42,429 bases of DNA from a phage. The notes beneath the pieces are model-generated. The model saw only the letters and a program-made list of their open reading frames with translations. It was not told the origin of the DNA and did not search any database. The stretch is from the NCBI GenBank assembly GCA_012697465.1, contig GCA_012697465.1_4985.1, one strand, 5' to 3'. The translations under genes were made by a program, and so were the position numbers. The stretch's first letter is position 1. Every line of letters starts with the position of its first letter. Positions 5,496 through 39,047 of this stretch are shown here, piece by piece.

Positions 5496-5572
5496 TGGCG
5501 ACCCCTACAGGAATCGAACCTGTAACCTACAGCTTAGAAGGCTGTCGCTCTATCCGGTTGAGCTAAGGGGCC
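5496..5572 (-). tRNA. tRNA-Arg (anticodon UCU)
   Basis: 77-nt cloverleaf folded by hand on the minus strand: 7-bp acceptor stem, D arm, anticodon stem ACAGC/GCUGU with loop CUUCUAA, T arm ACAGG-UUCGAUU-CCUGU, encoded CCA end. Confidence 0.8.
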
Positions 5573-13328: not shown

Positions 13329-13384
13329 GGTATAGTTATTTCACCGGCACACAGGTGCCCAACAACAAAAGAGGAAACACCCAA

Positions 13385-20440: not shown

Positions 20441-20467
20441 TAACCGCCTTCGGGCGGTTTTTTCTTT
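20441..20467 (+). terminator. Rho-independent terminator
   Basis: AACCGCC-TTCG-GGCGGTT hairpin followed by TTTTTTCTTTGG. Confidence 0.6.
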
Positions 20468-20523
20468 GGTTGATTTAACAATATTAACCACTTTTTCTGG
20501 TAAGTAATTGTCATACAAATGCT

Positions 20524-20800
20524 ATTTGGGACTATCTATGGTCCCAAATGGGACTATCTTTTTTTGAGCTGGTCCCACGTTAAGTTACTGATATTAATAA
20601 CGAAAACACCATTTGGGACTATAAGGGACTATCTTTTTATAAAACATTATTTATAAATAAAGGGGGAGTAATAGTATATATAGGGAAATTTGGTCCCACT
20701 TGTCCCAAATCAGCCAGAAAATGGCGTTTTCTTTAAGTTAATCAATAGCATAACAGTGGGACTATCTTTTGCTGAGATAGTCCCAAGTTAGTCCCTTGTT
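20524..20800. repeat. Iteron-like array: about 11 direct and inverted copies of TGGGAC(T/C)ATCT around an AT-rich core
   Basis: Copies at about 20528, 20538(inv), 20550, 20571(inv), 20615, 20625, 20692(inv), 20702(inv), 20758, 20775(inv), 20791(inv); includes two perfect inverted-repeat pairs; no ORF. Confidence 0.65.
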
Positions 20801-20865
20801 ACTTTCGTATATTCTGTGTGCTACAATCCCCATATTGACTTTTATTTATAATTATTGGGGGTTAC

Positions 20866-21300
20866 ATGGAATTACCGCGCACTGTGCAGGAAATAGCTGA
20901 CGTTATTGGCCGTGAACGTGCGCTTTTTCTTATCGGACAACTGCCAAAACTGTGGGTGCCATCGCAGCAATACCACAAAGTCATCCTGTATGTACCAAAG
21001 CGGATTCGACCCAATGACCCACTGGTGAAAATCCTGGGGTGGCATGATTCCAGCAAGATGGTGCAGCACTTCGGAGGTGAAATGCTTCACCCGGCTAATT
21101 GTGAATACATTTACCGCCATTTCATTCACCGCAGCATTAAGCGGATGCACAGCGAAGGAATGGACGCAAAAGCTATTGCGGAACTTCTTGACGTGTCAGA
21201 GCGCACCGTTAAGCGCCATTGCACTGACAAACCCCACAAAGACACATCACCTGCAAATGACAACCATCAGCACCGACTACTAATGACTACGGGGCAATAA
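20866..21300 (+). CDS. Mor/C-family transcriptional activator (putative late-gene activator)
   Basis: 144 aa; central ...ILYVPK... segment and C-terminal HTH AIAELLDVSERTVKRH; directly upstream of the lysis and packaging genes. Confidence 0.4.
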   Translation: MELPRTVQEIADVIGRERALFLIGQLPKLWVPSQQYHKVILYVPKRIRPNDPLVKILGWHDSSKMVQHFGGEMLHPANCEYIYRHFIHRSIKRMHSEGMDAKAIAELLDVSERTVKRHCTDKPHKDTSPANDNHQHRLLMTTGQ

Positions 21301-23683: not shown

Positions 23684-24286
23684 TTGACTGAGGGCAAAAA
23701 AATGGAAATAATCTCTGCAAGCGCAGCAAAAGAGAAAGGGCTTAAATTCTACTTCACCGGCAAACCCTGCAAAAACGGTAGCATTTCACCACGCTGGGTG
23801 TCTGACCGTCATTGTTCATGCGAAAAATGTTCTTCTTCAAAATACCAGCGAGAATTCTCCAGAAAGATGGCCGTCCAAAGGAAGAACGCTGACGCTTACC
23901 GCGCCAGGTTCAAGAAACACAGGGACAAAGACCCAAACGCCTATAAAGAAAAGAAGGCCATCTATCGCTTGGCAAACAAACCCATGAAACGACTTAGCGA
24001 CTCCAAGAGACGGGCAATGGAAAAGAACGCCATTCCTTCATGGTTTGGTGAGTTTGACGATCTTGCCATGAAAGAAGCATTCAACCTGGCAAAAGAACGG
24101 GAAAGCCAGACAGGTTTCCCCTGGAATGTTGACCACATGGTGCCATTGCAGTCGCCAATCGCATGTGGCTTGCACTGCGCAGCCAATATCCAGGTAATTC
24201 CAGCAACAATAAATTTGCAGAAACATAACAAGATGATTCTAACTGAGCCGAACGAATGGATAATAAACAGCAATTCAGCAACCTAA
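23684..24286 (+). CDS. HNH endonuclease
   Basis: C-terminal VDHMVPLQ...H...NIQVIP...N..KHNK HNH motif plus N-terminal Cys cluster; AT-rich, Lys-rich; overlaps the start of the large terminase gene. Confidence 0.55.
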   Translation: MTEGKKMEIISASAAKEKGLKFYFTGKPCKNGSISPRWVSDRHCSCEKCSSSKYQREFSRKMAVQRKNADAYRARFKKHRDKDPNAYKEKKAIYRLANKPMKRLSDSKRRAMEKNAIPSWFGEFDDLAMKEAFNLAKERESQTGFPWNVDHMVPLQSPIACGLHCAANIQVIPATINLQKHNKMILTEPNEWIINSNSAT

Positions 24287-26283
24287 CCAGCGTGCTTGAG
24301 GCTGACCAGCGAGCGGCCCAGAACCTGATACCGCCGGAAGATTTAAAGCCGAGCGAATGGGCTGAAAAAAACGTACAAATCCCGGTTGGTAACGCCAAGC
24401 CTGGACCTATCCGTTTCGCTAACGCGCCTTACCAGCGAGGTATGCTTGACGCCATCAAGGAACCTGGCGTGCGACGCATTAGCTACATGACTGGCGCACA
24501 GCTTGGAAAAACAACAATCCAGCAGTGCATTACTGGATATTTCATCGAACACGAACCGAGAAGCCAGATTTTTGTTCAGCCGACGCAGGGCGACGTTCAG
24601 ACATTTCAGGAAACCAAACTGCGCCCAATGCTTGACGCTAACCCTAAAATCAGCCGCCTGATGGCCAAGCAGCGCGGGCGTGAAGGGGTGAATAACAGCA
24701 GGATTATTTCCTATATCGGCGGTTGGCTGATGTTTAGCTGGGCAGGTAGTCCAAAAACTCTGCGCGGGCGTTCCGCACCAGTCACGCAAGCTGACGAAAT
24801 CGACGGTTTTGAAGCAACGGCAGAGGGTGACCCCGGCGAACTTCTGGCACAGCGTGCTGCGTCATTTGGTGATGATGCTCTGCGTACTGAATCAAGTACG
24901 CCGACCATCAAGGGTGAAAGCCGGATTGAAACTGCGTTTGAACTTGGTGACCAGCGTCGTTACCACGTGCGTTGCCAAGATTGTGGCACACTGCAATATT
25001 TCCACTGGCAAAACGTCACGTGGGTTGGCCGCAAGTCAACTGGTATTGATGATGCAGAAAACGACCTTAACTGCGAGCATCAGCCGGAAACAGCGGCATA
25101 CGTTTGCGAGGGCTGCGGATCATGTTGGGATGATGGCCAACGTGTAGCAGCTATCCGCGAAGCCGAAAGCAACGGAGGTGGCTGGATAGCTTCCAAACCG
25201 TTCAAAGGTCACATCTCTTTCCATGCGCCGGAAATGCTTTCGACTTTTCGCCGGTTACGCGACATTGTTCAATCATATCTGGATAAACTTGCGCTTGGTG
25301 ACCTGCAATCTTTCGTCAACGTCAGCCTTGGTGAAACTTACGACGAACAAGGCGACAAAGTTGACCCGGATTCACTGATGGCCCGCCGAGAGGAATACGC
25401 AGCGCCGGTTCCTGCTGGTGGTCTGTATATCACCGCAGGCATAGACATGCAGGTTGACCGCCTGGAATGTGAGGTGGTGGCCTGGGGCGTGGGTGAAGAA
25501 TCCTGGTCATTGGGTTACCACGTATTGTGGGGCGACCCGCTGACGCCTGACCCATGGGATGCGCTGGATGACCTGCTGGCGGAAACCTACCAGCATGAAA
25601 CCGGGGCCATTATGCCTATCATGGCCGCCTGCCTCGACACAGGGGGCACCAGTGGTTACACGCAGGCCGCCTATGACTACGCCAGGGGGCGCACAGGCCG
25701 CCGTCTGTTCGCCATCAAAGGTGTTGGCGGATGGGGCCGCCCTATCGTGGAGAAGCCGCAGCGCAAGCAATCCGGGAAGGATGCCCGCAAGGTGGATTTA
25801 TTCCTGGTTGGCACCGATGAAGCCAAGCTGATAACCGCACGGCGTTTAAACAAGACGGCACCGGGGCCGGGTTATTGCCATTTCCCTGCTGACCGCGATG
25901 AAGAATGGTTCAAGCAGATCACCGCTGAAAAACTTACCATGCGTTACGTGAAGGGCCAGCCAATACGCGAATGGAAGAAGCCGGACAAGGCGCGAAACGA
26001 AGCACTTGACTGCCGCAACTATGCGCTGGCCGCGCTGAAAATCATGCAGCCGTCATTCCGCCGCCTGGCTGAAAAGTTTGGCGTAGCGAACGACAACGCG
26101 CCACCGGAACGCCGCAAGCGGCTACCGAACGTCAAACCCATCGTGAAACCGGCAGAACCACCGAAACCGGCCAATGACAAACCCCAAGAAGAAGAAAAAC
26201 AGCAAGTCACAGAGACTAAGACCATTAAACGTTCCGCCATGGCCGCAAAACGCCGTGGCGGTGGATGGGTTAGCCGCTGGTGA
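24256..26283 (+). CDS. Terminase large subunit (lambda GpA family)
   Basis: 675 aa; N-terminal ATPase region and overall layout of GpA-type terminases; follows a Nu1-like gene. Confidence 0.8.
   Translation: MDNKQQFSNLTSVLEADQRAAQNLIPPEDLKPSEWAEKNVQIPVGNAKPGPIRFANAPYQRGMLDAIKEPGVRRISYMTGAQLGKTTIQQCITGYFIEHEPRSQIFVQPTQGDVQTFQETKLRPMLDANPKISRLMAKQRGREGVNNSRIISYIGGWLMFSWAGSPKTLRGRSAPVTQADEIDGFEATAEGDPGELLAQRAASFGDDALRTESSTPTIKGESRIETAFELGDQRRYHVRCQDCGTLQYFHWQNVTWVGRKSTGIDDAENDLNCEHQPETAAYVCEGCGSCWDDGQRVAAIREAESNGGGWIASKPFKGHISFHAPEMLSTFRRLRDIVQSYLDKLALGDLQSFVNVSLGETYDEQGDKVDPDSLMARREEYAAPVPAGGLYITAGIDMQVDRLECEVVAWGVGEESWSLGYHVLWGDPLTPDPWDALDDLLAETYQHETGAIMPIMAACLDTGGTSGYTQAAYDYARGRTGRRLFAIKGVGGWGRPIVEKPQRKQSGKDARKVDLFLVGTDEAKLITARRLNKTAPGPGYCHFPADRDEEWFKQITAEKLTMRYVKGQPIREWKKPDKARNEALDCRNYALAALKIMQPSFRRLAEKFGVANDNAPPERRKRLPNVKPIVKPAEPPKPANDKPQEEEKQQVTETKTIKRSAMAAKRRGGGWVSRW
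26176..26192 (+). repeat. 17-bp element GACAAACCCCAAGAAGA, copy 1
   Basis: Exact 17-mer, inside the 3' end of the terminase gene (codons DKPQEE). Confidence 0.7.
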
Positions 26284-26289
26284 TAAATA

Positions 26290-26829
26290 GTGAAAAACTG
26301 CCAAGTACCGCAGAAAATTACTGCTGGATTGACATTTGAGACGCGTCTGACGCTTCCCGGCTATCCTGCAACTGAATGGGCCGTTCAGCTACTGCTGCGC
26401 GGCCCGCAGTCAATTAACATCAACGCCGTCGCTGATGGTAACGATCACGTCATCCGCGCAGCCGCTGGCGTCACTGCAACGTGGCCCGCAGGCGATTACT
26501 GGTATTCGCTGCGCGCTACCAAAGGCGATGACGTTATGGAGGCCGGAAACGGCCAGATTACCATCCTGCCAGACCTGGCCAGCGCCAGTGATGGATTTAA
26601 CGGGAAAACTCACGCGCAACGCACCCTGGAAGCCATTGAAGCGGTCATAGAGAAGCGCGCGACGATGGACCAGGAACGCTACCGCATCAATAACCGCGAG
26701 TTATATCGCACCCCGATTGCGGATTTGCTGAAACTGCGCGACTTGTACCGCCTGGAAGTAGCACGCGAGAAGCAGGCGCAGTGCGGCAAAAACCCGTTCG
26801 GGCGTAAAGTTCGGGTGAGCCTTCGCTGA
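26290..26829 (+). CDS. Head-tail joining/head completion protein (gpW-like C-terminal region, putative)
   Basis: Position between terminase and portal as for lambda W; C-terminal 70 aa resemble gpW-type proteins; N-terminal 100 aa unassigned. Confidence 0.35.
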   Translation: MKNCQVPQKITAGLTFETRLTLPGYPATEWAVQLLLRGPQSININAVADGNDHVIRAAAGVTATWPAGDYWYSLRATKGDDVMEAGNGQITILPDLASASDGFNGKTHAQRTLEAIEAVIEKRATMDQERYRINNRELYRTPIADLLKLRDLYRLEVAREKQAQCGKNPFGRKVRVSLR

Positions 26830-28385
26830 TGAAACTGTGGCCATTTACCAGAAACAAGCCTGCCGAACAGGCACAACAGCCGCGCACGCGGCGTTTACCG
26901 CTTAACCGCCTGGCGTCCCGTATGTTTACCGGTGCCAGTGTTGACCGCTTCGGCACCGCATGGGGTACGCAGCCGCTGACGGCTGATGAAGTCATTACCA
27001 AAAATCAACGCATCCTGGTGGCCCGTTCCCGCGAACAGGCCTCCAACAATGATTATGCCAAAAAGTTCCTGCGCCTGTGCCGCACAAACATTGTTGGGCC
27101 AAAAGGCGTTCTGTTGCAGGCAAAAAGCCAGGATAACACCGGAAAACTGGACACCCTGGCGAATGAAGCCATTGAACTGGCGTTTAACGCATGGGGCAAA
27201 AAGACCAACTGCGACGTGACCGGGAAACTGTCATGGCGTGCCATCCAGGCCGCCTGCGTCAACAGCGTGGCAAAAGACGGTGAATTCTTCGTGCGCCTGG
27301 TGTTCGGGGCTGACGCAGGGCCGTGGGGCTTCTCGCTGCAACTGCTGGACCCTCAACGCTGCCCGGTGGACATGGTTGAAGATCGGCTGCCAAACGGAAA
27401 TTTCATCCGCCAGGGCATCGAATTTAACCGCTACGGGCGGCCTATCGCGTATTATTTCAGCACAGTTGATGAATCGGATGAAAACTACCGTTGGGCTGGG
27501 CGTGACTTTGTGCGCGTGCCTGCGGAAGAAATCCTGCACGGCTTTTTTGATGACATGGTGGGCCAGAAACGCGGCCTGCCCTGGATGGCAACCAGCCTGT
27601 TTCGTATGCGCCACCTGGGCGGCATGGAAGAAGCCGCACTGGTCAACGCGCGAGCAGGTGCAAACAAAATGGGGTTTATCGAATGGGATGAAAACGGCGC
27701 TGGACCTGAATTCGACGATGAAGACGAACTGATCATTGACAGTGAACCTGGTGAATTCCAGGTGCTGCCACAGGGCGCACGCATCAAAGACTGGTCACCG
27801 CAATACCCCAACGGCGAATTTGCCGTGTTCACCAAACAGATGCTGCGCGGAATGGCTTCTGGCATGGGCGTGGCTTACAACAACCTGGCCAACGACCTGG
27901 AAGGTGTCAATTTCAGTTCCATCCGACAGGGCACGCTTGACGAGCGTGAAAGCTGGAAGGAATTGCAGGAATGGCTGATCGAAAACCTGCACCAGCCTGT
28001 CTTTGACGCCTGGTTGCCGCGCGCCCTGCTGTCTGGACGCATCACGGTGAAGGGCCGCAGCCTGAAACCGGAACGCATCGACCGCTACAGCAACATTGAA
28101 TGGCAGCCACGCCGTTGGGCCTGGATTGACCCATCATCTGACGTGGCAGCGGCTGAAAAATCCAAAAACAACATGCTGCAATCGCCTGGCCGCATCATCC
28201 GTGAAGGTGGCAGCGACCCTGACACCGTTTGGAAGGAAACCGCCAGCGACGTTGCGCGCATGATTGAGGCGTACACGCAGCACGGTATCAGCCGCGAAAT
28301 GGCGGAAAAACTGGTCATGCAAAGCATGGGCATGGACAAACAACTGTTAATGGGGCAGCAAAATGCAGAAAAACCCGCTGAATAG
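26829..28385 (+). CDS. Portal protein (lambda gpB family)
   Basis: 518 aa, position after terminase and W-like gene, acidic and aromatic-rich portal-like sequence. Confidence 0.7.
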   Translation: MKLWPFTRNKPAEQAQQPRTRRLPLNRLASRMFTGASVDRFGTAWGTQPLTADEVITKNQRILVARSREQASNNDYAKKFLRLCRTNIVGPKGVLLQAKSQDNTGKLDTLANEAIELAFNAWGKKTNCDVTGKLSWRAIQAACVNSVAKDGEFFVRLVFGADAGPWGFSLQLLDPQRCPVDMVEDRLPNGNFIRQGIEFNRYGRPIAYYFSTVDESDENYRWAGRDFVRVPAEEILHGFFDDMVGQKRGLPWMATSLFRMRHLGGMEEAALVNARAGANKMGFIEWDENGAGPEFDDEDELIIDSEPGEFQVLPQGARIKDWSPQYPNGEFAVFTKQMLRGMASGMGVAYNNLANDLEGVNFSSIRQGTLDERESWKELQEWLIENLHQPVFDAWLPRALLSGRITVKGRSLKPERIDRYSNIEWQPRRWAWIDPSSDVAAAEKSKNNMLQSPGRIIREGGSDPDTVWKETASDVARMIEAYTQHGISREMAEKLVMQSMGMDKQLLMGQQNAEKPAE

Positions 28386-30411
28386 CATCATTGGTGCCGA
28401 ATTTACCCGCAAATCCGACAGCAAAACGCTGCCTGATTTCAACAAAGGCGGGCTGGTTCGCACTATGGAAGTGCGCAAGTTTGACACCGAAAAACGCACC
28501 GTAGAACTGGCTTTTTCATCCGAAATCGAGGTTGAACGCTGGTACGGTATCGAAATTCTGGACCATTCGCCGGAAAGCGTGCGCCTGGACCGTCTGCGTG
28601 ACGGTGGGGCGCTGCTGGTTGACCACGATTGGACTGACCAGGTGGGCGTTGTTGAATCCGTCAGCATTGACGCTGACCGCCGGGGGCGGGCTGTGGTGCG
28701 CTTTGGCCGAAGTGCACGCGCTGACGAGATTTTCCAGGACATCGTTGACGGCATTCGCAAGCATGTTTCCGTTGGCTACCGCGTGTTAGCGGCCAAGCTA
28801 CAGGAAACGCGTGATGAATGGCAGGATGTCTACCGCATCACTGAATGGGAACCGTTCGAAATTTCAATTGTGAGCGTTCCCGCTGACACCAGCGTTGGCA
28901 TTGGGCGTGCGTTTGACAAACCCCAAGAAGAACAACGCGGCAGCAAATCCGATACTGCGGGCACCGTAGAGGTTCCAGCACCAACAAATATTGCATCTGA
29001 GGGCATTAGAATGGAAAAAATTCTGCGCGACGCAGCCGGTAACCTGGTGCGCGCAATGGTAGACGAAAAAGGCAACATCACGCAGGTTCTGGAAATGCTG
29101 GAACGTGCTGGCGATGATGCGCGCAACGCTGAACAGCGTGGCCGTGAAGCCGAAAAGGCGCGTGTTCGTGCCATCACTGAAATGGGCGAGAAGTACAACG
29201 CACGTGATCTGGCTTTGAAAGCCATTGGCGAAGGCACCACCGCCGAAGATTTCCAGCGTTCCTTGCTGGACCACCTGAACAAGACGAAAGACCCTGCACA
29301 ACAGGCTGATGGCACCCGTTCGGGCGGCAAGCCGCTGTCAGAAATGCCGTCCAGCGTGATCGGTATGTCTGAAAAAGACATCCGCCGCTACAGCATTTTC
29401 AACGTGGTTCGCGCGCTTGCTAACCCGAACGATGCAGCCGCACAGCGTGCCGCAGCATTTGAGATCGAATGCAGCCACGCAGCGCAACAGCAATATGGCC
29501 GCAGCGCAAAAGGCATTCTGATCCCTGACGATGTTCTGCGTGCATTCAACGCTGGTGGCGCACCAAACACCCCGACAGGCGCGCAAACCGGTTCAAACCT
29601 GGTAGGCACTGACTTTATGGCCGGTTCGTTCATCGACCTGCTGCGCCCGCGCACCACCATCATGCGCCTGGCGCGTACTATGGGCGGACTGGTGGGCAAC
29701 GTTGAAATCCCGAAACAGACTGGCGGCGCTACTGCCTACTGGATTGGTGAAGGTGATGACGCCACAGAAACCACGCCGACCATCGGCCAGCTTGGTTTGT
29801 CACCGAAAACCGTTGCGGCTTACACTGACATTACCCGCCGCCTGCTGATGCAATCCACCCCGGATGCGGAAGCTATCGTGCGCGGTGACCTGGTGGCAGC
29901 TATCGCGCAGGCGATTGATTACGCTGGTTACTACGGCACCGGCACCAGCAACCAGCCGCTGGGCCTGGCGAACTACACCGGCATTAATGCGGTAGACTTC
30001 GCAGCAGACAACCCGACTTATGCGGAACTGGTGCAGATGGAAACCGAAATTGCGGCTGACAACGCTGACGTGAACAACATGGCTTATGTGCTGAACGCGC
30101 GTGGCCGTGGTGCTGCGAAAACCACGCCGAAGTTTGCCAGCGGTTCTTCCGTAGCTGACGCTGGCGTGATTTGGGAGCCAGGCAACACCCTGAACGGTTA
30201 CCGCGCCGAAGTAACCAACCAGGTGCAGGATGGTGACGTGTTCTTTGGCAACTTCGCTGACCTGGTGGTTGGTATGTGGGGCGGCCTGGACATGACGGTT
30301 GACCCGTACAGCCTGAGCAAATCCGGTGGTCTGCGAATCGTGGTATTCCAGGACGTGGATTTTGCGGTGCGCCGCGTTGAATCCTTCTGCCTGGGCCGCA
30401 ACTCAGCATAA
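28363..30411 (+). CDS. Prohead protease - scaffold - major capsid protein fusion (HK97-fold capsid)
   Basis: N-terminal 180 aa with prohead protease features (LLVDHDW...VGYRV...EISIVSVPAD), coiled-coil middle, C-terminal 300 aa major capsid-like; internal in-frame Met with RBS at 29011. Confidence 0.75.
   Translation: MQKNPLNSIIGAEFTRKSDSKTLPDFNKGGLVRTMEVRKFDTEKRTVELAFSSEIEVERWYGIEILDHSPESVRLDRLRDGGALLVDHDWTDQVGVVESVSIDADRRGRAVVRFGRSARADEIFQDIVDGIRKHVSVGYRVLAAKLQETRDEWQDVYRITEWEPFEISIVSVPADTSVGIGRAFDKPQEEQRGSKSDTAGTVEVPAPTNIASEGIRMEKILRDAAGNLVRAMVDEKGNITQVLEMLERAGDDARNAEQRGREAEKARVRAITEMGEKYNARDLALKAIGEGTTAEDFQRSLLDHLNKTKDPAQQADGTRSGGKPLSEMPSSVIGMSEKDIRRYSIFNVVRALANPNDAAAQRAAAFEIECSHAAQQQYGRSAKGILIPDDVLRAFNAGGAPNTPTGAQTGSNLVGTDFMAGSFIDLLRPRTTIMRLARTMGGLVGNVEIPKQTGGATAYWIGEGDDATETTPTIGQLGLSPKTVAAYTDITRRLLMQSTPDAEAIVRGDLVAAIAQAIDYAGYYGTGTSNQPLGLANYTGINAVDFAADNPTYAELVQMETEIAADNADVNNMAYVLNARGRGAAKTTPKFASGSSVADAGVIWEPGNTLNGYRAEVTNQVQDGDVFFGNFADLVVGMWGGLDMTVDPYSLSKSGGLRIVVFQDVDFAVRRVESFCLGRNSA
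28915..28931 (+). repeat. 17-bp element GACAAACCCCAAGAAGA, copy 2
   Basis: Exact 17-mer inside the protease/capsid CDS in the same codon phase (DKPQEE), 80 nt upstream of the internal Met. Confidence 0.7.
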
Positions 30412-30416
30412 TGAAC

Positions 30417-30444
30417 ATGGCCGCTTCGGCGGCCATAGTCTTTT
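30417..30444 (+). terminator. Stem-loop/terminator after the capsid gene
   Basis: ATGGCCGC-TTCG-GCGGCCAT hairpin followed by a short T-run. Confidence 0.5.
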
Positions 30445-30462
30445 CCGACAGGAGACAGTTTT

Positions 30463-30765
30463 ATGTCTGGTACTTACGTACTGAAATTGACTTCCGCCAT
30501 TGCTATCAGCGGCGAAGTAATGAAAGCAGGTTCACTGGTTGAGGTTTCAGAGATTGAAGCCAAAAACCTGTTGTCACGCGGAAAGGCCGTGATGCACGAC
30601 GAACAACCGGCGCGTGATGACGATATTGAAATCACGAAAATGAATAAAGATCAGCTTATCGCTATTGCAGAACAGATGGAAATTGAAGGCGCTGAAAAGA
30701 TGACCAAAGCGCAGTTGATTGAAGCCATCGAAGCCGCAGGCGAAACCAAAGAGGACGCAGAATAA
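30463..30765 (+). CDS. Hypothetical head-associated protein
   Basis: 100 aa, AGGAG-type RBS; C-terminal helix-extension-helix-like segment (KDQLIAIAEQMEIEGAEKMTKAQLIEAIEAA). Confidence 0.4.
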   Translation: MSGTYVLKLTSAIAISGEVMKAGSLVEVSEIEAKNLLSRGKAVMHDEQPARDDDIEITKMNKDQLIAIAEQMEIEGAEKMTKAQLIEAIEAAGETKEDAE

Positions 30766-31127
30766 TGATCCGTCATGGCACATCCGTGAAAGTGCTGGCA
30801 GCACCAGCAACCGTAACCGCTAACAACAACGGCACCGCTGTTGATGTCAGCAAATATGAAAGCCTGGTGCTGCTGCACGCCGTTGCCGCAATCACCGCAG
30901 GTGAAAACACCATCAAACTGCAACACAGCGACGATGAATCAACCGGCTGGACTGATGTTCCTAACGCAGTGTTTCCGCAACTGACTGCGACCACGAAAGA
31001 AGCGTCACTGCTGTTCAACTCTGATCGATTCAAAAAGTTTGTGCGCGTGGTTGATACGGTGAGCGGCACCTCCCCGTCTGGTGTGCGTTCTGTTGTCCTG
31101 GTTGGCGTAACTAAAGAGTCACAGTAA
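30765..31127 (+). CDS. Hypothetical head completion/adaptor protein
   Basis: 120-aa ORF between capsid and FII-like gene; function inferred from position only. Confidence 0.35.
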   Translation: MIRHGTSVKVLAAPATVTANNNGTAVDVSKYESLVLLHAVAAITAGENTIKLQHSDDESTGWTDVPNAVFPQLTATTKEASLLFNSDRFKKFVRVVDTVSGTSPSGVRSVVLVGVTKESQ

Positions 31128-31459
31128 TGCCAGCGCCGTCCTGGGAAAACCTGGACGACTTTTTTGACCTTGACACCAACGGCGGGTTTGCATTTCCCGC
31201 CGTTATTCATTCGCAAAAAGGTTGGACCAGAACAATTAACGCCATCTTTGATGACCCGTACTTCAACGCGCAAATTGGCGAGTATGAAGCGGACACCAGC
31301 AGCCCACGCATCACGGCAAAGGAATCTGACCTGGCCGGTATCCTGCGTGGTGACACAATCATTGTGGCCGGTGAAACATTCGACGTGCTGGCATCACCTG
31401 AACAGGATGGCACAGGCACTGCCGTTGTGAGGATGACGCGCCAAGATGCTGCATTTTGA
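31127..31459 (+). CDS. Head-tail joining protein (lambda gpFII-like)
   Basis: C-terminal ...LRGDTIIVAGETFDVLASPEQDGTGTAVVRM parallels lambda FII as I remember it. Confidence 0.5.
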   Translation: MPAPSWENLDDFFDLDTNGGFAFPAVIHSQKGWTRTINAIFDDPYFNAQIGEYEADTSSPRITAKESDLAGILRGDTIIVAGETFDVLASPEQDGTGTAVVRMTRQDAAF

Positions 31460-32003
31460 CCTGGATTGGCAACAACTGCGCGGCGTGGCTGCTGAACTGG
31501 AAGCCAGTGAAAAGCAGTTCAAAGCCGCATTAAGCCGCGCTTGCAACCGCACGGCAGCTACCCTGCGAAAAATGTCTGGCCGTGGCCTGAAAGATGAACT
31601 GCAACTGCGCACGCTGTCAGCGCTGCGCAAGCGCCTTAAATCCATCAGGCTACGCACGCGCCAGCAGGGCGTTGTTCTGTGGTACGGCCTGAACGATCTT
31701 CCGGTGAGTAGCTTTAAGGGCCGCGCAAAGCAGACCAGCGACGGTGCCACGTTCCGTGACCAGAAGTTTGACGGCGCATTTGTGGGCCGCAGCACAGTGA
31801 AAGGTAAGCGCACTGTGTTTAAACGAGCAGGAAAAGCGCGCCTGCCAATAACTGAACAGTTGATGCCGATTAAGGACAAAGCCGAAATCTTCATTGAAGA
31901 TGAAATTTTCACGCAGGTAGAGCAGATATTCTGGAAGCATTTCGAACGCGATTTAAGGGCGCGCGTCAAATACTTTGATACATCTGACAGGTGGGGCAAA
32001 TGA
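31446..32003 (+). CDS. Tail completion/virion morphogenesis protein (putative)
   Basis: 185-aa basic protein between head-tail joining gene and baseplate genes; assignment by position and composition. Confidence 0.35.
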   Translation: MLHFDLDWQQLRGVAAELEASEKQFKAALSRACNRTAATLRKMSGRGLKDELQLRTLSALRKRLKSIRLRTRQQGVVLWYGLNDLPVSSFKGRAKQTSDGATFRDQKFDGAFVGRSTVKGKRTVFKRAGKARLPITEQLMPIKDKAEIFIEDEIFTQVEQIFWKHFERDLRARVKYFDTSDRWGK

Positions 32004-32569
32004 ACGCCGATACTCACATTGATTTAGAAGTGCTGCACAGCGCCATTGTGGCAGACATTAAAGCCGCATTCCCGCAACTGGTCACCGTGGAGTTTTACCA
32101 GGATGACCCGGAGGAGCGCAAAACGCTTCCTATCCCTGCCTGCCTGCTGACCATCAGCGAACTGGAGGCAGACAACGACACTGACCCTGGCACCGAACAA
32201 CTGGCTGTAGTGGCCACGTTTGAGGCGCATTTTGTCATCAACAGCATCAGGACACCCCGCGCCGCCATGGCCATCAGGACGCTGGCCGCTGCCTTCATGG
32301 CCTGGCTGCGCAAGCGCCGGTGGACCAATCCCGCAGACCACGCCAGGAAACTGCCCACAGGGCCAGCCAACGTGGTTGGCGGCTTCCCTGATGACTTCAC
32401 CCCGGAAATGGACAAATACGAGGTGTGGCGCGTGGAATGGCAGCAGGTTATCCACCTGGGGGAAAGCGTGTGGAACGATGACGGCATAACCCCATCAGAG
32501 GTTTATTTCAGTTGGTCGCCTGAAATTGGCTACGGCAACGAAGAAGATTACGAGAAGGTGAACCCATGA
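31991..32569 (+). CDS. Tail completion protein (putative)
   Basis: 192-aa ORF directly upstream of gpV-like gene; assignment by position. Confidence 0.35.
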   Translation: MGQMNADTHIDLEVLHSAIVADIKAAFPQLVTVEFYQDDPEERKTLPIPACLLTISELEADNDTDPGTEQLAVVATFEAHFVINSIRTPRAAMAIRTLAAAFMAWLRKRRWTNPADHARKLPTGPANVVGGFPDDFTPEMDKYEVWRVEWQQVIHLGESVWNDDGITPSEVYFSWSPEIGYGNEEDYEKVNP

Positions 32570-33219
32570 GCGCAGAAGTTAGCGAACTGAATCGCCAGCT
32601 AAACAACGTTGTGCGCATCGGCACCATCAAACAACTGGATCTGGCCAACGCGCGTGCAAAGGTTTCCGTTGCTGGCTGCACCACTGACTGGCTACCATGG
32701 GGCACCAACCGCGCCGGTAAGCGCCGCGACTGGTCACCGCCTGTCATCGGTGAACAGGTGGTTTTGTTTGCGCCTTATGGCGATTTGGGACAGGCGGTCA
32801 TTGGGCCGTCAATCTTCCAGGATGACCACGCCGCGCCAGCAGCCAGCGCCGACCAGGAAACAACCGTTTACCCTGACGGCACAACGGTGGACTACAACAG
32901 CGCCAGCAACACGCTGACCATCACCGTGGCTGGTGCAGGTAATGTCATCATCAACTGCAAACAAGCCAACGTGAACACTGAAACAGCCACCGTGACGGCA
33001 TCCACCAGCGTAACACTGGACACGCCTGACACGTTTTGCACAGGCAACCTGACAGTGGCCAAAAGTTTCCAGATGGGAAGCGAAGGCGGAACGGCTACGA
33101 TGACTGGTAATGTGGCGATTGAAGGCGGAAGCCTGACACACAACGGCAAAAACATTGGCAGCAACCATGCTCACAGCGGCGTGCAGTCTGGTGGAAGCAA
33201 CACCGGCGCACCGGTATGA
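32566..33219 (+). CDS. Baseplate spike protein (P2 gpV-like)
   Basis: Colinear with P2 gpV as I remember it: ...TDWLPW..RAG..R.W.PP.IGEQV...GDL..A...PSI...D...P..S......DGT...Y......LT.T......V..PD...CTGNL...K...M......EGG.L..NGK...HAH. Confidence 0.8.
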   Translation: MSAEVSELNRQLNNVVRIGTIKQLDLANARAKVSVAGCTTDWLPWGTNRAGKRRDWSPPVIGEQVVLFAPYGDLGQAVIGPSIFQDDHAAPAASADQETTVYPDGTTVDYNSASNTLTITVAGAGNVIINCKQANVNTETATVTASTSVTLDTPDTFCTGNLTVAKSFQMGSEGGTATMTGNVAIEGGSLTHNGKNIGSNHAHSGVQSGGSNTGAPV

Positions 33220-33222
33220 CCT

Positions 33223-33239
33223 GACAAACCCCAAGAAGA
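33223..33239 (+). repeat. 17-bp element GACAAACCCCAAGAAGA, copy 3
   Basis: Exact 17-mer starting 4 nt after the gpV stop codon, 34 nt upstream of the gpW start. Confidence 0.7.
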
Positions 33240-33251
33240 TAAACCACCACC

Positions 33252-33275
33252 CATGCGGGCATCATTGCCCGCATG
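33252..33275 (+). promoter_or_regulatory. Perfect inverted repeat CATGCGGGC-N6-GCCCGCATG enclosing the gpW start codon
   Basis: 9-bp arms; the right arm ends in the ATG of the gpW-like gene; no obvious Shine-Dalgarno upstream. Confidence 0.45.
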
Positions 33276-33611
33276 AAAGGAACAAACGCGGCTACAGGCG
33301 CGCCGCTGGATGGCATTGACCATCTGCGCCAATCCATACGTGACATACTCACGACGCCAATTGGCACGCGAGTGATGCGCCGCGACTACGGCAGCCGGTT
33401 ACCGTACCTGGTTGATGCACCGATGAACCGCAGCACGTTGCTGGACCTGTACGCAGCGACTGCGGAAGCACTGGAAGCCTGGGAGCCACGCATCAGCGTG
33501 CAGCAGGTGACAGCAACATCAGCAGAACCAGGACGCGTGGAATTGTCCATTACCGGCGAATACCTGCCAGACGGCAAACAAATAACAATTGACGGCATAG
33601 TGGTGACATAA
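33273..33611 (+). CDS. Baseplate assembly protein W (P2 gpW / gp25-like)
   Basis: 112 aa; gpW/GPW_gp25 family pattern (IRDILTTPIGTRVMRRDYGSRL...). Confidence 0.8.
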   Translation: MKGTNAATGAPLDGIDHLRQSIRDILTTPIGTRVMRRDYGSRLPYLVDAPMNRSTLLDLYAATAEALEAWEPRISVQQVTATSAEPGRVELSITGEYLPDGKQITIDGIVVT

Positions 33612-34514
33612 ATGGCGGGTGCCTTCACAGTTGTAAACTTATCCGAATTACCAGCGCCAAACGTTGTTGAGGCGCTGGACTTTGAAACGATCCTGGCGGC
33701 CATGATTGCCGATTTGCAGGAGCGTGACCCCACATTCACCGCAATGGTTGAATCTGACCCGGCTTATAAAATCCTGGAGGTTTGCGCCTATCGTGAATTG
33801 TTAATCCGTAAGCGCGTCAACGAATCCGCAAAGGCGGTGATGCTGGCTTATGCCACCGGAGCTGACCTCGACCAGCTTGGCGCTAACGTTGGAGTTCAGC
33901 GCCTGGTTATCAAGCCAGCAGATGACACCACCGTGCCGCCAACGCCTGCCGTCATGGAAGATGATGACGCTTTCCGCGCACGCATCCAGTTATCACCGGA
34001 GGGATACACCACTGCCGGTTCTGAAGGCAGTTACGTGTTTCACGGCCTGGGGGCAAGTTCTGACGTTAAGGATATTCAGGCGATCAGCCCTACACCTGGC
34101 AAGGTGACCGTTTACGTGTTATCGCGCACCGGCGACGGTACAGCGCCAACGGAAACCATTAACGCAGTAGCCAGCACCCTGAACGGTGAAACCGTGCGCC
34201 CGCTGACCGATGAAGTCACCGTGCTGTCAGCGAACATTGTTGATTACACTATTGACGCAGAACTGACGCTGTACCCCGGCCCGGATTCCAGCGTGGTGCT
34301 GCAATCGGCCATTGACGCCGTGACGGCTTATGCCGAAGCGCAGCGCCGCATCAGTTACGATGTGCCGCTGTCTGGACTTTACCGCGCATTGCATCAGCCA
34401 GGCGTGCAGAACGTGACCCTGAACCAGCCAACGGCATCGCTGGTGCTTGGTGAGGGGCAGGCCAGCTACTGCACAAACATCAACGTGACCCTGGCGGATA
34501 CAACTGATGTCTGA
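33612..34514 (+). CDS. Baseplate assembly protein J (P2 gpJ-like)
   Basis: 300 aa, colinear with the gpJ family; follows gpW. Confidence 0.8.
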   Translation: MAGAFTVVNLSELPAPNVVEALDFETILAAMIADLQERDPTFTAMVESDPAYKILEVCAYRELLIRKRVNESAKAVMLAYATGADLDQLGANVGVQRLVIKPADDTTVPPTPAVMEDDDAFRARIQLSPEGYTTAGSEGSYVFHGLGASSDVKDIQAISPTPGKVTVYVLSRTGDGTAPTETINAVASTLNGETVRPLTDEVTVLSANIVDYTIDAELTLYPGPDSSVVLQSAIDAVTAYAEAQRRISYDVPLSGLYRALHQPGVQNVTLNQPTASLVLGEGQASYCTNINVTLADTTDV

Positions 34515-35094
34515 TTTATTGCCTTATAACGCCACAGACCATGAACGCGCACTGGCCAACACCATAGCGCGCATCAGTGATGTGCCGGTGCTTGTTCGTG
34601 AAGTCTGGAACCCCGACACTGCGCCAGCATCCGTTCTTCCCTGGCTGGCGTGGGCTTTCAGCGTTGATGATTGGGATGCGAACTGGACCGACGCGCAAAA
34701 GCGCAACGTCATTAAGCAGTCAGTATATTCGCAGCGCATTAAGGGAACCATCGGTGCTGTTACGCGCCAGCTTGCTGCGCTTGGCTACACCATCCAGATT
34801 CTTGAATGGTGGCAGCAAGTGCCGGAAGGGCAGCCGTACACGTTTGATGTTTACATCACCGCCAGTCAGTACCCGCTGACAAAGCGCGATTACAACAAGG
34901 TTATGGAAGTCATAGACACCAACAAAAACCTGCGTTCGCATATGGGTATAGTTACGATTGTTGCACAATCATTGTCGAATGTAACTTGCGCCACAGTTTC
35001 AGCGTTAGGAGCTGAAATTTCGGTGACAAATTACGGATACGTTCCGGCAGCCGTGAACGATTACGCACTAATGAACAACACGATAAGGGTTTAA
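34507..35094 (+). CDS. Tail protein I (P2 gpI-like)
   Basis: 195 aa; position and sequence (PWLAWAFSVDDWD...) as for P2 gpI. Confidence 0.75.
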   Translation: MSDLLPYNATDHERALANTIARISDVPVLVREVWNPDTAPASVLPWLAWAFSVDDWDANWTDAQKRNVIKQSVYSQRIKGTIGAVTRQLAALGYTIQILEWWQQVPEGQPYTFDVYITASQYPLTKRDYNKVMEVIDTNKNLRSHMGIVTIVAQSLSNVTCATVSALGAEISVTNYGYVPAAVNDYALMNNTIRV

Positions 35095-35095
35095 C

Positions 35096-37153
35096 GTGGA
35101 ACTGAAAACATATTTCGCGCAAGACCGCGCCGGAAACCTGATTCCAAACGCTACGGTCACTATCTACCTGACCGGCACCAATACGCTGGCGACAGGTCTG
35201 AAAACCGCAACCGATGCGGCATTGTCTAACCCGTTCACCGCCAGCCCTGATGGGAAAATTCAGTTCAAAGCGGCTGACGGCATCTATGACATGCAGATCT
35301 CATACAGCACGCAGATCGGCCCGCGCATCACGATTCAATGTCTTGACCAGGCTGGACAGGTTGCAGCAGCACAGCAGGCTGCAAATGATGCTGTAGCTAT
35401 TAAAGGCGAAATTCAGCAGATCATCAATAACGCAGGCGAACAGTCAACGCTTGTAGTATTGGCGCAACCGGACGGGGCCGACAAAGTTGGTTCGCCTTAC
35501 GGCGGCACTATCTCTAGCGACATGATGCCATCGGTTATCAAAAAAATCGGCACATTCCAAAGTGGAGCATTGATTACAGACAGTTTGCAAGCATTGTACG
35601 ACGCGTCGTCTGGTGACTGGTATATGTACATTGGCGCTATACCTGGCGGCGGCCTCACCGTCCTTGCTGGATCGTCACCTAATTCATCCTGGGTATCCGT
35701 CGGGCTATTGAACGGATCGCCCATTAACAGTATAAAAAACTGGGTTTTGGACGCGTCACTAGCGAATGCCAGTGCAACGACCAGCCGGATAAATTTAATG
35801 CTATCCTCACTGGTTAAACTGAATATCTTTTCGTGCAGGATAAACGATTTTAGCGAGACACATATTAATGGCACCCTGACCTTTAGCGCAGGTATGCGAA
35901 TTATCGGTAATGGGATGTTCAGAAACCCTCTTGTGTATCATGGCACTGGAGATGCGATTGTTTATGACAGCCAAATTTACTTTGAGAATTTTAACCTGAA
36001 GCAAGGCGACGAAGCCTGGACGGGTAGCGCTATCGTTTGCCGTGGTCAGCAAGCATATTGCTCATTCCATAACGTCAATGTTGAAAGGTTCAGATATGGG
36101 CATATCTCGCGATACTCTATCTGGATTAAATACTCCAATGTCCGAATGAAAAACGTGGCTTGTGCGTTCAGATTTTTACGAAACTCTACAGCTACAGATA
36201 AAAATGACCCTATAGCCTCGGGTGGATGGAACCTTAATGGAGGTTGGTTCCATAACGTAATGGATATGAGCCTGGTAACGATAGACGGCTGTGAAGTTGG
36301 CATATGGGGTTCACCTATGTGCGCGGTTATCAATGCCCCAACAGTACAGAATGTTGCGGCCAGGGGCGATGGCACTAACTTAGTTCTTCCCGATGGCATT
36401 GAGCCGTGTGCGATGTATTTACAAGGTGGTACTACCACCACTACTACAAATAGTGCCGTAAACTGGAACCTGCAAATAAATCAGCTTTACATCGAGTGGG
36501 CTAACGCTGGAGTGCTAATAGAGGGTTATAGGCTGTGCAAGATAAGTCTGTTCGCCCAGGGTGGTCCCTCTGCGACAAGGATGAAATTCGCGGTAAAGGC
36601 AACATCAGGTTCCAATGTGATCGTTACTGACATTGTGGGGCAGGACTACTTTGAGTCTTTATTTGTTGCAGATAGTAAGTCCACGATTGAGGTTCAGCGG
36701 CGAGTTGGCCCTATGGTTGGCACCATGTCGTCGGGCGATTCGACGGGATTAATAACGTACAAAGAACAGGACAAAATTTTCAATCTCAATGCAGCCGCAG
36801 GTGTTTCAGGCCGTAAATACCTTATAGCTCCTGTAGAAGCGGGATCGTATGAACTGGAAGTACAAGTAGTAGTGGATGGTATATCTATCGCCGGTGGCAT
36901 ATTTGACATCTCCATAAGGAATAACACTTTATGGGCTAGTGCTTACACATCCCTACAGCCGTTGAGTCTCAATACTACAACGCCAATATATCCTGACGGA
37001 AAAACATCAACCCCTATATCGATAGATGTGTCTGGAGGAAACTTATACTTAATTGTTGGCACGGGACTTAGCTATTCCGCCAGGATAATTTTGAGGAACA
37101 AGGTTAGATGGAATTACTCTTCACCTATAGAGATACCTGATTCCCCAATTTGA
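35096..37153 (+). CDS. Tailspike / tail fibre protein with beta-helix-like C-terminal domain (putative depolymerase/receptor-binding protein)
   Basis: 685 aa, GTG start; conserved fibre-like N-terminus then markedly AT-rich Ser/Thr/Asn/Gly-rich repetitive region. Confidence 0.55.
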   Translation: MELKTYFAQDRAGNLIPNATVTIYLTGTNTLATGLKTATDAALSNPFTASPDGKIQFKAADGIYDMQISYSTQIGPRITIQCLDQAGQVAAAQQAANDAVAIKGEIQQIINNAGEQSTLVVLAQPDGADKVGSPYGGTISSDMMPSVIKKIGTFQSGALITDSLQALYDASSGDWYMYIGAIPGGGLTVLAGSSPNSSWVSVGLLNGSPINSIKNWVLDASLANASATTSRINLMLSSLVKLNIFSCRINDFSETHINGTLTFSAGMRIIGNGMFRNPLVYHGTGDAIVYDSQIYFENFNLKQGDEAWTGSAIVCRGQQAYCSFHNVNVERFRYGHISRYSIWIKYSNVRMKNVACAFRFLRNSTATDKNDPIASGGWNLNGGWFHNVMDMSLVTIDGCEVGIWGSPMCAVINAPTVQNVAARGDGTNLVLPDGIEPCAMYLQGGTTTTTTNSAVNWNLQINQLYIEWANAGVLIEGYRLCKISLFAQGGPSATRMKFAVKATSGSNVIVTDIVGQDYFESLFVADSKSTIEVQRRVGPMVGTMSSGDSTGLITYKEQDKIFNLNAAAGVSGRKYLIAPVEAGSYELEVQVVVDGISIAGGIFDISIRNNTLWASAYTSLQPLSLNTTTPIYPDGKTSTPISIDVSGGNLYLIVGTGLSYSARIILRNKVRWNYSSPIEIPDSPI

Positions 37154-37256
37154 TTTACGGTAGTTGGTGATTTTCTTTCTGTGTCAGCTATCATAATAGA
37201 TAGCCGACACTCCATGATGGCATGGTATTCTTCTTATAATATTATGGAATATAAAA

Positions 37257-38594
37257 ATGGCATACGCAACAATTCATACTAACTACGGCCTGCAACGGTT
37301 AGCGCAGGCCGAAACAACCGGCGTTCCAATCAACCTGATTGAAATGGCTGTGGGTGATGGCAACGGTAACGAAACCACACCGTCACAGTCGCAAACCCAA
37401 CTGGTGCGCGAACGTTTTCGCGCCACCATCAACCGTGTTTATCAGGACGCCAGCGACCCGCTGCGCTTCACGGCTGAATTGATTATTCCGGCCAGTGTCG
37501 GTGGATTCACGCTGCGCGAAGTCGGTGTGTTCGATGATACCGGATCGCTGTTCGTGGTTGGCAACCTGCCATCCACTTACAAGCCGGAAAACGACGAAGG
37601 CGCGTATTCTGACACGGTTGTGCGCGTTGACTTCCTGGTTAGCAATGCCAGTACCATCACGTTGCAGGTTGACCCAAACGTTGTGGTTGTTACGCAGCAG
37701 TGGATCAGCAACAACGTGACTGCGGCGACTATCATTCCTGGCGGTACGACTGGCCAGATTCTGGCGAAGGAATCCAACGCTGATGGCGACTACATTTGGA
37801 AAGACCCGACTGACGCAATTGTTGTGGTTGACACCATCGCGGAGAAACAAACCCTGGCGGCGTCGCAAACCATCGTTGACCTGACTGAAACGATCACCTA
37901 CGGCCTGGCGGTTTACATCGATGGTGTTCGCCTGCCGATGGGTAGCGGTGTTGACGAATGGCAGCCAGACCCTGCAATCACAACCCGCGTTATCCTGGGT
38001 AAATCCTACCCAGATGGATCAGTTTTCCAGGGTGTGAATAACGAACCAGCAGGCAGCGCACCGGCACCGCTGGAACGTGCAAAAAACCTGTCTGATGTTC
38101 AGAGTGCTTCAACATCTCGCACCAACCTGGATGTGTTCAGCAAGGAGGAAACACGACAGATGGCACCTGCTGGTCTGGTGGCTACGTTCGCAAGAAGCAC
38201 CGCGCCAACTGGCTGGCTGAAAGCGAATGGCGCAGCCGTGAGCCGTACCGCATACGCTGACCTGTACGCGGCCATTGGCACGCGATTTGGCGCTGGTGAC
38301 GGCATCAATACGTTCAACCTTCCAGATCTGCGCGGTGAGTTCATTCGCGGATGGGATGATGGCAGGGGCGTTGATTCAGGCCGTGCACTTGGTAGCGCAC
38401 AGGGCCAACTGATTGAGTCGCACGATCACGGAATGGACCCATACAAACAAGTTAACGCAAACATTCTGCAACCTGTCACCGGTGGCGCTGAACTGTCATC
38501 GGTTGGCGTTGGCGGCACGGTACGAACAAAAGCCACCGGCGGTTCCGAAACCCGACCGCGAAACGTTGCATTGCTGTATTGCATTAAATTCTAA
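37257..38594 (+). CDS. Tail fibre protein (P2 gpH-like N-terminus, tail-collar-like C-terminus)
   Basis: N-terminus MAVGDG...AELIIPASVGGF.LREVG..DD.G.L..V.N...SYKP parallels P2 gpH; C-terminus FNLPDLRGEFIRGWDDGRG...R.R.. Confidence 0.75.
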   Translation: MAYATIHTNYGLQRLAQAETTGVPINLIEMAVGDGNGNETTPSQSQTQLVRERFRATINRVYQDASDPLRFTAELIIPASVGGFTLREVGVFDDTGSLFVVGNLPSTYKPENDEGAYSDTVVRVDFLVSNASTITLQVDPNVVVVTQQWISNNVTAATIIPGGTTGQILAKESNADGDYIWKDPTDAIVVVDTIAEKQTLAASQTIVDLTETITYGLAVYIDGVRLPMGSGVDEWQPDPAITTRVILGKSYPDGSVFQGVNNEPAGSAPAPLERAKNLSDVQSASTSRTNLDVFSKEETRQMAPAGLVATFARSTAPTGWLKANGAAVSRTAYADLYAAIGTRFGAGDGINTFNLPDLRGEFIRGWDDGRGVDSGRALGSAQGQLIESHDHGMDPYKQVNANILQPVTGGAELSSVGVGGTVRTKATGGSETRPRNVALLYCIKF

Positions 38595-38603
38595 GGCGGT
38601 ATC

Positions 38604-38885
38604 ATGACCACAAAGATTGTTTATCAGCATGACATAGCCGGAATGTTCACCGGCGAAACGGAAGCCGATGAATCACCACTGGAGCCGGGTGTGTTCCTGA
38701 TTCCGGCGAGATGTGTTGAAGTGGCACCACCAGCATATTCTGGCGACCAGTGGCCGCGCTGGAACGGAGCAAATTGGGAACTGATTAACGCATCACCAGC
38801 AAACGAAAATCAACCTGCCAACCCGGTTGATAAACTTCGGGATTTTCTGATGGCAAATCCTGACGTTGCTGAATTGATTAAGTAA
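38604..38885 (+). CDS. Tail fibre assembly chaperone (putative)
   Basis: 93-aa ORF immediately after the fibre gene; W-rich motif DQWPRWNGANWELI. Confidence 0.45.
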   Translation: MTTKIVYQHDIAGMFTGETEADESPLEPGVFLIPARCVEVAPPAYSGDQWPRWNGANWELINASPANENQPANPVDKLRDFLMANPDVAELIK

Positions 38886-38932
38886 TATTGTGACTAATCA
38901 CATTATTCGCGCCTGGTATTATTGTCGCCTTT

Positions 38933-38955
38933 GCCCGTATCACGCGGGCTTTTTT
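38933..38955 (+). terminator. Rho-independent terminator after the fibre genes
   Basis: GC hairpin GCCCG...CGGGC followed by TTTTTT. Confidence 0.5.
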
Positions 38956-38958
38956 ACG

Positions 38959-38975
38959 GACAAACCCCAAGAAGA
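38959..38975 (+). repeat. 17-bp element GACAAACCCCAAGAAGA, copy 4
   Basis: Exact 17-mer between the terminator and the sheath start (73 nt upstream of the ATG). Confidence 0.7.
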
Positions 38976-39047
38976 AGCCACGCACTGTTCCTGCGACCAT
39001 CACACTGCGAATTTTCACTGTGTGCACAGTCAATAGGAAACCGAATA

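Follow-up and report, generated by a model that had tools for sequence, protein, structure and literature searches.

Background

Why should a phage carry the same 17 base pairs (bp), letter for letter, at four places scattered through its late genes, twice inside reading frames and twice outside them? The question is raised by a stretch of 42,429 nucleotides (nt) of phage DNA (NCBI GenBank assembly GCA_012697465.1, contig GCA_012697465.1_4985.1), referred to as the window throughout this work, in whose late region the element GACAAACCCCAAGAAGA recurs. We propose that the element is probably the binding site of a phage-encoded late activator, for which a protein of 144 amino acids (aa) is the likeliest candidate, and that it serves five late promoters read by the sigma-70 RNA polymerase of the host. 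Such a mechanism would be of a known kind, namely the activation exerted by the C protein of phage Mu, found here in a phage group where it has not yet been described.

The window belongs to the genus Jilinvirus of the subfamily Iiscvirinae. Over most genes it is 90-96% identical to the Escherichia phages vB_EcoM-ep3, ECOO78, ECO1230-10 and HeidiAbel/Bas97 and to the Salmonella phage PT1, and it is about 80% identical to the Enterobacter phage Arya and the Klebsiella phage KA2-1. According to a survey from 2025, Jilinviruses have "not been well characterized" (PMC11990801). No mention of the 17-mer was found in the literature that we searched.

Results and discussion

Five copies of the element

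A sequence-only reading of the window had reported four exact copies on the + strand, and a recount returns the same four. Upstream of the holin gene there is a fifth copy, differing at two bases, which that reading had overlooked. The copies are as follows:

21226-21242, + strand: fifth copy, GACAAACCCCACAAAGA, 2 mismatches, in the 3' end of the activator open reading frame (ORF) 20866-21300, phase 0, encoding DKPHKD
26176-26192, + strand: exact copy, in the 3' end of the large terminase ORF 24256-26283, phase 0, encoding DKPQEE
28915-28931, + strand: exact copy, in the protease-scaffold-capsid fusion ORF 28363-30411, phase 0, encoding DKPQEE
33223-33239, + strand: exact copy, beginning 3 nt past the stop of the gpV-like baseplate ORF 32566-33219
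38959-38975, + strand: exact copy, intergenic, before the sheath gene, 9 nt past an intrinsic terminator

The placement described in that reading, with two copies in the same codon phase, one right after the gpV stop and one between genes, holds in every particular. Beyond the end of the element, the next structural start comes after 98 nt (26176), 80 nt (28915), 34 nt (33223) and 73 nt (38959), in agreement with the 34-100 nt announced. A pattern search of the window allowing up to three mismatches would be expected to return 0.12 chance matches to the 17-mer, and none of 100 shuffles reached five. The flanks, which had been called unrelated, indeed do not align with one another, and their alignment reveals no conserved bases upstream of the element; what had escaped notice is a -10-like hexamer at a fixed distance downstream of it.

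Concerted change between lineages

The sequence-only reading had proposed a search of related phages for conservation of position, and in every relative examined all five positions are occupied by the element, whose copies within each lineage switch together. The relatives from E. coli and Salmonella carry the identical 17-mer at the same four positions, and the end of their activator gene likewise holds the same near copy. In the Enterobacter phage Arya all four positions hold GACACCCCGCACGAAGA; in the Klebsiella phage KA2-1 three hold GACAAGCCGCACGAAGA and one holds GACAGGCCGCACGAAGA; in the Serratia phage MQ-4 four hold GACAAACCCAAAGAAGA (one of them with a mismatch), and a one-mismatch copy stands at the end of the activator gene; and in the Pseudomonas phage Persinger all five positions hold GGAAATCCCACAAGAGGA exactly. 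In each of MQ-4, KA2-1, Arya and Persinger the end of the activator gene bears a copy peculiar to the lineage, and judged from its sequence and position the site at 21226 is a true member of the set. Three more contigs show the same concerted switching. When the versions are right-aligned, the bases common to them are GA.A..CC.CA.GA.GA.

Some of the lineage changes are non-synonymous where a copy is coding, and the non-coding copies undergo the identical changes. Because coding and non-coding copies change in concert, even at the cost of amino acid substitutions, we conclude that selection acts on the DNA, by way of a diffusible factor that differs between phages. The earlier suggestion that the nucleotide sequence rather than a protein motif is under selection is thereby borne out.

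A -10-like hexamer at a fixed distance

Downstream of each copy in the window lies a hexamer of the form nAnnnT:

21262-21267, + strand: -10-like hexamer AACCAT of the lysis unit; predicted transcript start at about 21274; holin ATG at 21306
26212-26217, + strand: -10-like hexamer GAGACT of the head-tail joining unit; predicted transcript start at about 26224; GTG at 26290
28951-28956, + strand: -10-like hexamer GATACT of the scaffold-capsid unit; predicted transcript start at about 28963; nested ATG at 29011
33260-33265, + strand: -10-like hexamer CATCAT of the baseplate gpW unit, spacing 20; predicted transcript start at 33272-33273; ATG at 33273
38995-39000, + strand: -10-like hexamer GACCAT of the sheath unit, preceded by TGc; predicted transcript start at about 39007; ATG at 39048

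We examined the spacing at 25 sites, five in each of five phages. The hexamer is present 3' of the element at all 25, at an offset of 19 bp in 22 and of 20 bp in the other three, and nAnnnT occurs at any other offset in at most four of the 25. A scan of the whole window with the motif of shared bases plus the spaced hexamer returned the five sites, at 10 or 11 of the 11 fixed bases, and a single further, weaker match (position 1455, - strand; 9 of 11 bases).

At none of the five sites did a consensus scan find a TTGACA-like -35 hexamer. The late region contains 12 matches to the canonical sigma-70 promoter, against an expectation of 15.6, and is thus not enriched in them; none of them stands at the five units, and only one lies just ahead of a late gene, the one for the small terminase. 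The best canonical match of the late region, TTGACT-17-AATAAT at 23684-23712 (10 of 12 consensus positions), is found just before that gene, and the terminase genes may thus also possess an activator-independent promoter.

From the layout we infer activator-dependent sigma-70 promoters in which the element extends from about -49 to -33 and overlaps the -35 region, as well as the transcript start points given above and the timing of these promoters. The suggestion of a late promoter or activator-binding site, one of several roles offered by the sequence-only reading, gains support from the concerted change, from the -10 hexamer at a fixed 19-20 bp and from the missing -35, all of them features of the DNA sequence. 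The statement in the same reading that the element matches no nameable signal was too cautious, as the layout corresponds to that of the C-dependent late promoters of Mu.

The candidate activator

The protein most likely to be the late activator, and hence to bind the element, is encoded directly ahead of the lysis genes:

20866-21300, + strand: candidate late activator gene, 144 aa, with an N-terminal domain of helices and beta-strands and a C-terminal helix-turn-helix; it holds the first predicted promoter

All annotated relatives encode a "late transcriptional activator" of 144-150 aa directly upstream of the holin genes. The C-terminal helix-turn-helix of the 144-aa protein matches the models of GerE/LuxR, HTH_7 and sigma-70 region 4. 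The protein matches the family phrog_836, "late transcriptional activator", at 7e-30, and Mu C and Mu Mor match the same family at 2e-11 and 1e-10, respectively, besides their own family phrog_532. The window protein itself has no match to the Pfam Mor model; PF08765, a family characterized by an N-terminal dimerisation domain, a beta-strand linker and a C-terminal helix-turn-helix, is reached by seven of its 32 homologs, at best with 3e-8. On account of the shared matches to phrog_836 and PF08765 we treat the 144-aa protein as a distant relative of the Mor/C group. A confident structure model (with a predicted local distance difference test score, pLDDT, of 81.5) comprises two helices, a short pair of strands, further helices and the helix-turn-helix. 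The sequence-only reading had named this Mor-like protein as a possible binding partner of the element, and it is the best candidate.

In the C-terminal tail of the activator, which is variable apart from an invariant NDN, the codons for NDN fall on the hexamer of the lysis promoter (21262-21267), which shows that the predicted promoter constrains the coding sequence of the activator.

Between a terminator at 20442-20459 and the activator gene lies an AT-rich region of 400 bp (20460-20865) with at least nine copies of GGGACTAT(CT) or GGTCCCA in both orientations. At the corresponding position KA2-1 has a different repeat, CTTGGTCACCACTT, in four copies. The repeats in the window may form an operator array controlling the activator gene, or they may mark a replication origin.

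Comparison with known late promoters

The late promoters of Mu have -10 hexamers and no -35; the C site is a 16-bp imperfect dyad centred at -43.5, within a required stretch from -52 to -34 (PMC2582627). Both Mor and C touch RNA polymerase as well as the adjacent major grooves upstream of the -35 region, and they work with sigma-70 (10.1101/2025.05.02.651988). The likeness of the window to Mu extends to a -10 without a -35, to a conserved activator site of 16-19 bp that overlaps the -35 region (PMC2582627), and to the use, predicted for the window, of the host sigma-70 polymerase. Moreover, dispersed promoters serve the lysis, head and tail genes of Mu and would do so in the window, the gene order C-Plys-lys of Mu is mirrored by the activator, lysis promoter and lysis genes of the window, and the activator proteins are detectably related. 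On the other hand, five such promoters are predicted in the window and Mu has four; reading frames (those of the activator, the large terminase and the capsid fusion) enclose three of the five sites; one promoter is predicted to yield a leaderless transcript; the window phage is non-transposable, with head genes of the lambda-like and tail genes of the P2-like kind; and the activators belong to sister groups, phrog_836 in the window and phrog_532 in Mu.

The late promoters of P2, 186 and P4 are activated by the zinc-finger proteins Ogr, B and Delta, which recognize TGT-N12-ACA near -55, and between P2 and P4 there is cross-activation, the activator of the one acting on promoters of the other. 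P2, whose tail is of the same kind as that of the window phage, resembles it further in possessing four dispersed late promoters without a good -35. TGT-N12-ACA was not found within 60 bp upstream of any of the sites, and neither in the window nor in seven relatives was there an Ogr homolog, which excludes control of the P2 type. MQ-4 is the only relative with an annotated ogr/delta-like zinc-finger gene (25115-25357), which it carries besides the Mor/C-like activator. The middle promoters of T4 have a MotA box at -30, with AsiA as the co-factor. They resemble the promoters proposed here in that a non-palindromic box, recognized by a phage protein, takes the place of the -35 of a sigma-70 promoter, and differ from them in the protein family, in the position of the box and in the need for AsiA. 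We saw no homolog of MotA or AsiA in this work, in which no search was aimed at them.

Predicted late transcription units

In the mechanism that we propose, the activator bound to the element would stand in for recognition of the -35, as protein C does in Mu, with the weak -10 hexamer nAnnnT supplying the remainder of the promoter. The activator gene carries the first and weakest site, so that synthesis of the activator would turn on the lysis and terminase genes, and the four exact sites would then turn on four further units. The site at 21226 is predicted to serve a unit that runs from the holin gene (ATG 21306) on through the lysis and terminase genes, and the site at 26176 a unit of head-tail joining (GTG 26290), portal and protease genes. 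From 28915 transcription would cover the genes from the nested scaffold-capsid gene to baseplate gpV, from 33223 those from baseplate gpW through the tail fibres, on a leaderless transcript, and from 38959 those from the sheath (ATG 39048) to the end of the tail genes. The tail-fibre unit would be closed just before the predicted sheath promoter by a terminator:

38933-38949, + strand: intrinsic terminator, GCCCGTATCACGCGGGC followed by TTTTTT

Inside the 682-aa protease-scaffold-capsid frame (28363-30411) there is an in-frame internal start, ATG 29011, with a Shine-Dalgarno-like gaggg, 48 nt past the predicted transcript start at 28963. A separate scaffold-capsid product of 466 aa is expected from this start. 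The arrangement resembles the nested C/Nu3 genes of phage lambda.

At the start of the gpW gene the hexamer is followed by exactly 7 nt and the ATG, without a Shine-Dalgarno sequence, and the five phages that we compared, whose hosts range from Pseudomonas to E. coli, all share this arrangement. We therefore predict a leaderless gpW mRNA. The same place can form a strong hairpin:

33252-33275, + strand: hairpin CATGCGGGCA-TCAT-TGCCCGCATG, spanning the gpW -10 hexamer and the start codon

The fold of the 78 nt around it (33213-33290) has a z score of -4.98. In read-through RNA the hairpin would bury the gpW AUG, and it could not form in a transcript starting at 33273. A similar hairpin is found at the gpW start of MQ-4; in Arya and KA2-1 the spacer at gpW (tcgtgcggg or tcgtgcggc) pairs with the core of the element instead (CCCGCACGA or GCCGCACGA).

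In the early region of the window, 13355-14053 encodes a protein with the Nmad5 (nucleotide modification associated) domain.

Orphan copies in lambda-like prophages

The exact 17-mer was found in 76 stretches of a viral contig collection, among which ECOO78 is the only Jilinvirus. Most of the other carriers are lambda-like prophages with the Q antiterminator, a lysis cassette and cos, and they resemble phages of Klebsiella, Cronobacter, Enterobacter and Salmonella. The orphan copies were noted in the IMG/VR loci L001-L076 and L245-L315. About 120 stretches of lambda-like prophages contain the whole promoter, i.e. the 17-mer, 19 bp and nAnnnT. The copies are single and lie on the late strand, and nAnnnT follows at exactly 19 bp in 36 of the 43 non-redundant contexts; the seven contexts without it are unrelated chance matches.

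The orphan element either stands between cos and the last of the lysis genes or follows a tail gene, and it lies about 10 nt past an intrinsic terminator or about 27 nt ahead of one. In many of the copies ahead of a terminator, the predicted transcript start would be located within the 5' arm of its stem. Downstream genes were examined in the first set of loci, where the nearest of them encodes Rha (PF09669) at 32 loci, KilA-N plus P63C at 12 and ANT (antirepressor-type) at five. The Cronobacter phage ENT47670 (L130), for instance, has the element at 27792, ahead of an Ant gene, and the Klebsiella phage 2 LV-2017 (L083) has it at 11153 on the - strand. Three interchangeable versions, GACAAACCCCAAGAAGA, GACAACCCGCACGAAGA (30 stretches) and GACAACCCCCAAGAAGA (45 stretches), occur in near-identical flanks, and some lambda-like contigs hold two versions in tandem. 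None of the protein clusters within the stored flanks of the lambda-like loci is associated with the version of the element.

A scan of representative genomes gave 94 matches, of which most are at the level of chance, as we estimate that about 70 would be expected in 596 gigabases. The promoter layout was found only in Kosakonia cowanii (two contigs) and Serratia fonticola. One Kosakonia cowanii contig (L226, NZ_JAROAU010000002.1) has GTCAACCCCCAAGAGGA, GACAAACCCCAAGAAGA and GACAGCCCGCACGAAGA in tandem at 2560-2700 on the - strand, with nAnnnT at +19 after GTCAACCCCCAAGAGGA and GACAAACCCCAAGAAGA, and no obvious prophage genes nearby. In complete E. coli genomes we found neither a Jilinvirus-like prophage nor an orphan promoter.

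It is tempting to regard the orphan copies as "listening" promoters, carried by resident prophages, which a phage of the Jilinvirus type that invades or shares the cell would fire through its late activator, and whose firing would trigger the escape of the prophage or an abortive infection; we offer this idea only tentatively, and it is rather less probable than not. Alternatively, the orphan promoters could be read by another factor, encoded by the host or by the prophage itself.

Weighing the alternatives

Several observations weigh against the proposal that the element is the binding site of a Mor/C-like late activator. The sites of Mor and C are dyad-symmetric and the element in the window is not: there is no reverse-complement relation between the halves of GACAAACCCCAAGAAGA, nor between those of the versions from Arya, KA2-1, MQ-4 and Persinger. 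The element also lies about 3 bp nearer to the -10 than the Mu site, being centred near -40 or -41 rather than at -43.5. The recognition helix, SERTVKRHC, is identical in the window, in Arya and in the locus L318 despite their differing elements, so that a simple test of co-variation between helix and element type failed, and the specificity must therefore reside elsewhere in the protein or in another protein. Finally, with hidden Markov models from the alignments A2 and A3, no homolog of the activator was detected in two complete lambda-like genomes or in any stored flank, which means that in the lambda-like prophages something else may read the element. With these points taken into account, we still regard the activator site as the probable explanation.

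The strongest competitor accepts that the element is part of a promoter and regards the 144-aa protein as a sigma-like or sigma-appropriating subunit, which would replace or remodel sigma-70 region 4 in the manner of MotA/AsiA of T4 or act as a minimal sigma factor of the extracytoplasmic function (ECF) type. We consider this unlikely. No sigma region 2 is detectable in the 144 aa, the -10 hexamers look like those of sigma-70 (nAnnnT), and the homology points to Mor and C, which work with sigma-70 (10.1101/2025.05.02.651988).

The element could also act in RNA, as a processing site, as a loading site for antitermination or anti-Rho factors (similar to ops or nut), or as a translational enhancer on a long late transcript; RNA processing and translational control were among the roles offered by the sequence-only reading. 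Every copy indeed lies on the sense strand, the 3' part of the element is purine-rich and Shine-Dalgarno-like (AAGAAGA, or AAGAGGA in Persinger), and several of the copies in lambda-like prophages adjoin intrinsic terminators. However, the element takes part in no shared fold (at four of the five sites the region folds either in an unrelated way or about as well as expected), and it has no match in Rfam, the sole Rfam match in the window being the tRNA at 5499-5572. A role in RNA would also leave the strict 19-bp spacing to nAnnnT unexplained; the element is located upstream of the predicted transcript starts; the next start codon follows it at no fixed distance (34 to 98 nt); and cleavage within the terminase and capsid frames would be harmful. 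We find this explanation very improbable.

The explanation to which we give the least credence is that the element serves as a linker for recombination between modules, or as the site of another DNA transaction, such as packaging or partition by the ParB-like protein (4054-4935). The copies do lie at module borders, where the sequence-only reading had suspected a recombination hotspot, and the element of lambda-like prophages frequently adjoins a stop codon (tGA-CAAACC...) and connects genes of various kinds. In favour of a ParB-like reader, this protein is the only clear one that the window shares with the lambda-like Klebsiella phage 2 LV-2017 (53% identity), in whose early region the counterpart lies. 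However, among the 44 contigs with ParB-like homologs the element lies within 10 kb in only one, from the close relative ECOO78, and is missing from the other 43; furthermore, the element is not palindromic, unlike parS. As for recombination, 17 bp are too short for homologous exchange, and neither the concerted change within a phage nor the fixed spacing to the -10 is explained by a linker or by any of these transactions.

Two further candidates were rejected: a promoter of a phage RNA polymerase, suggested by exact repeats after terminators, since no annotated relative has a polymerase gene and the hexamers are of the sigma-70 type; and the protein motif DKPQEE, since two of the copies lie outside coding sequence and the changes between lineages occur in concert although they are non-synonymous.

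Conclusions

If the orphan promoters of lambda-like prophages are indeed "listening" promoters, the late activator of one phage would be used as a signal by another, which would be a new kind of cross-talk between phages, and these promoters would also drive the concerted switching of specificity among Jilinviruses. Whatever reads the orphan copies, the versions of the element in the different lineages provide a natural series for studying how a protein of the Mor/C type would read an asymmetric site. For a poorly studied group of phages, the activator-site explanation that we favour provides a late-gene switch with a candidate activator and five precisely placed, predicted promoters, together with a capsid gene nested in a longer frame and a baseplate mRNA predicted to be leaderless.

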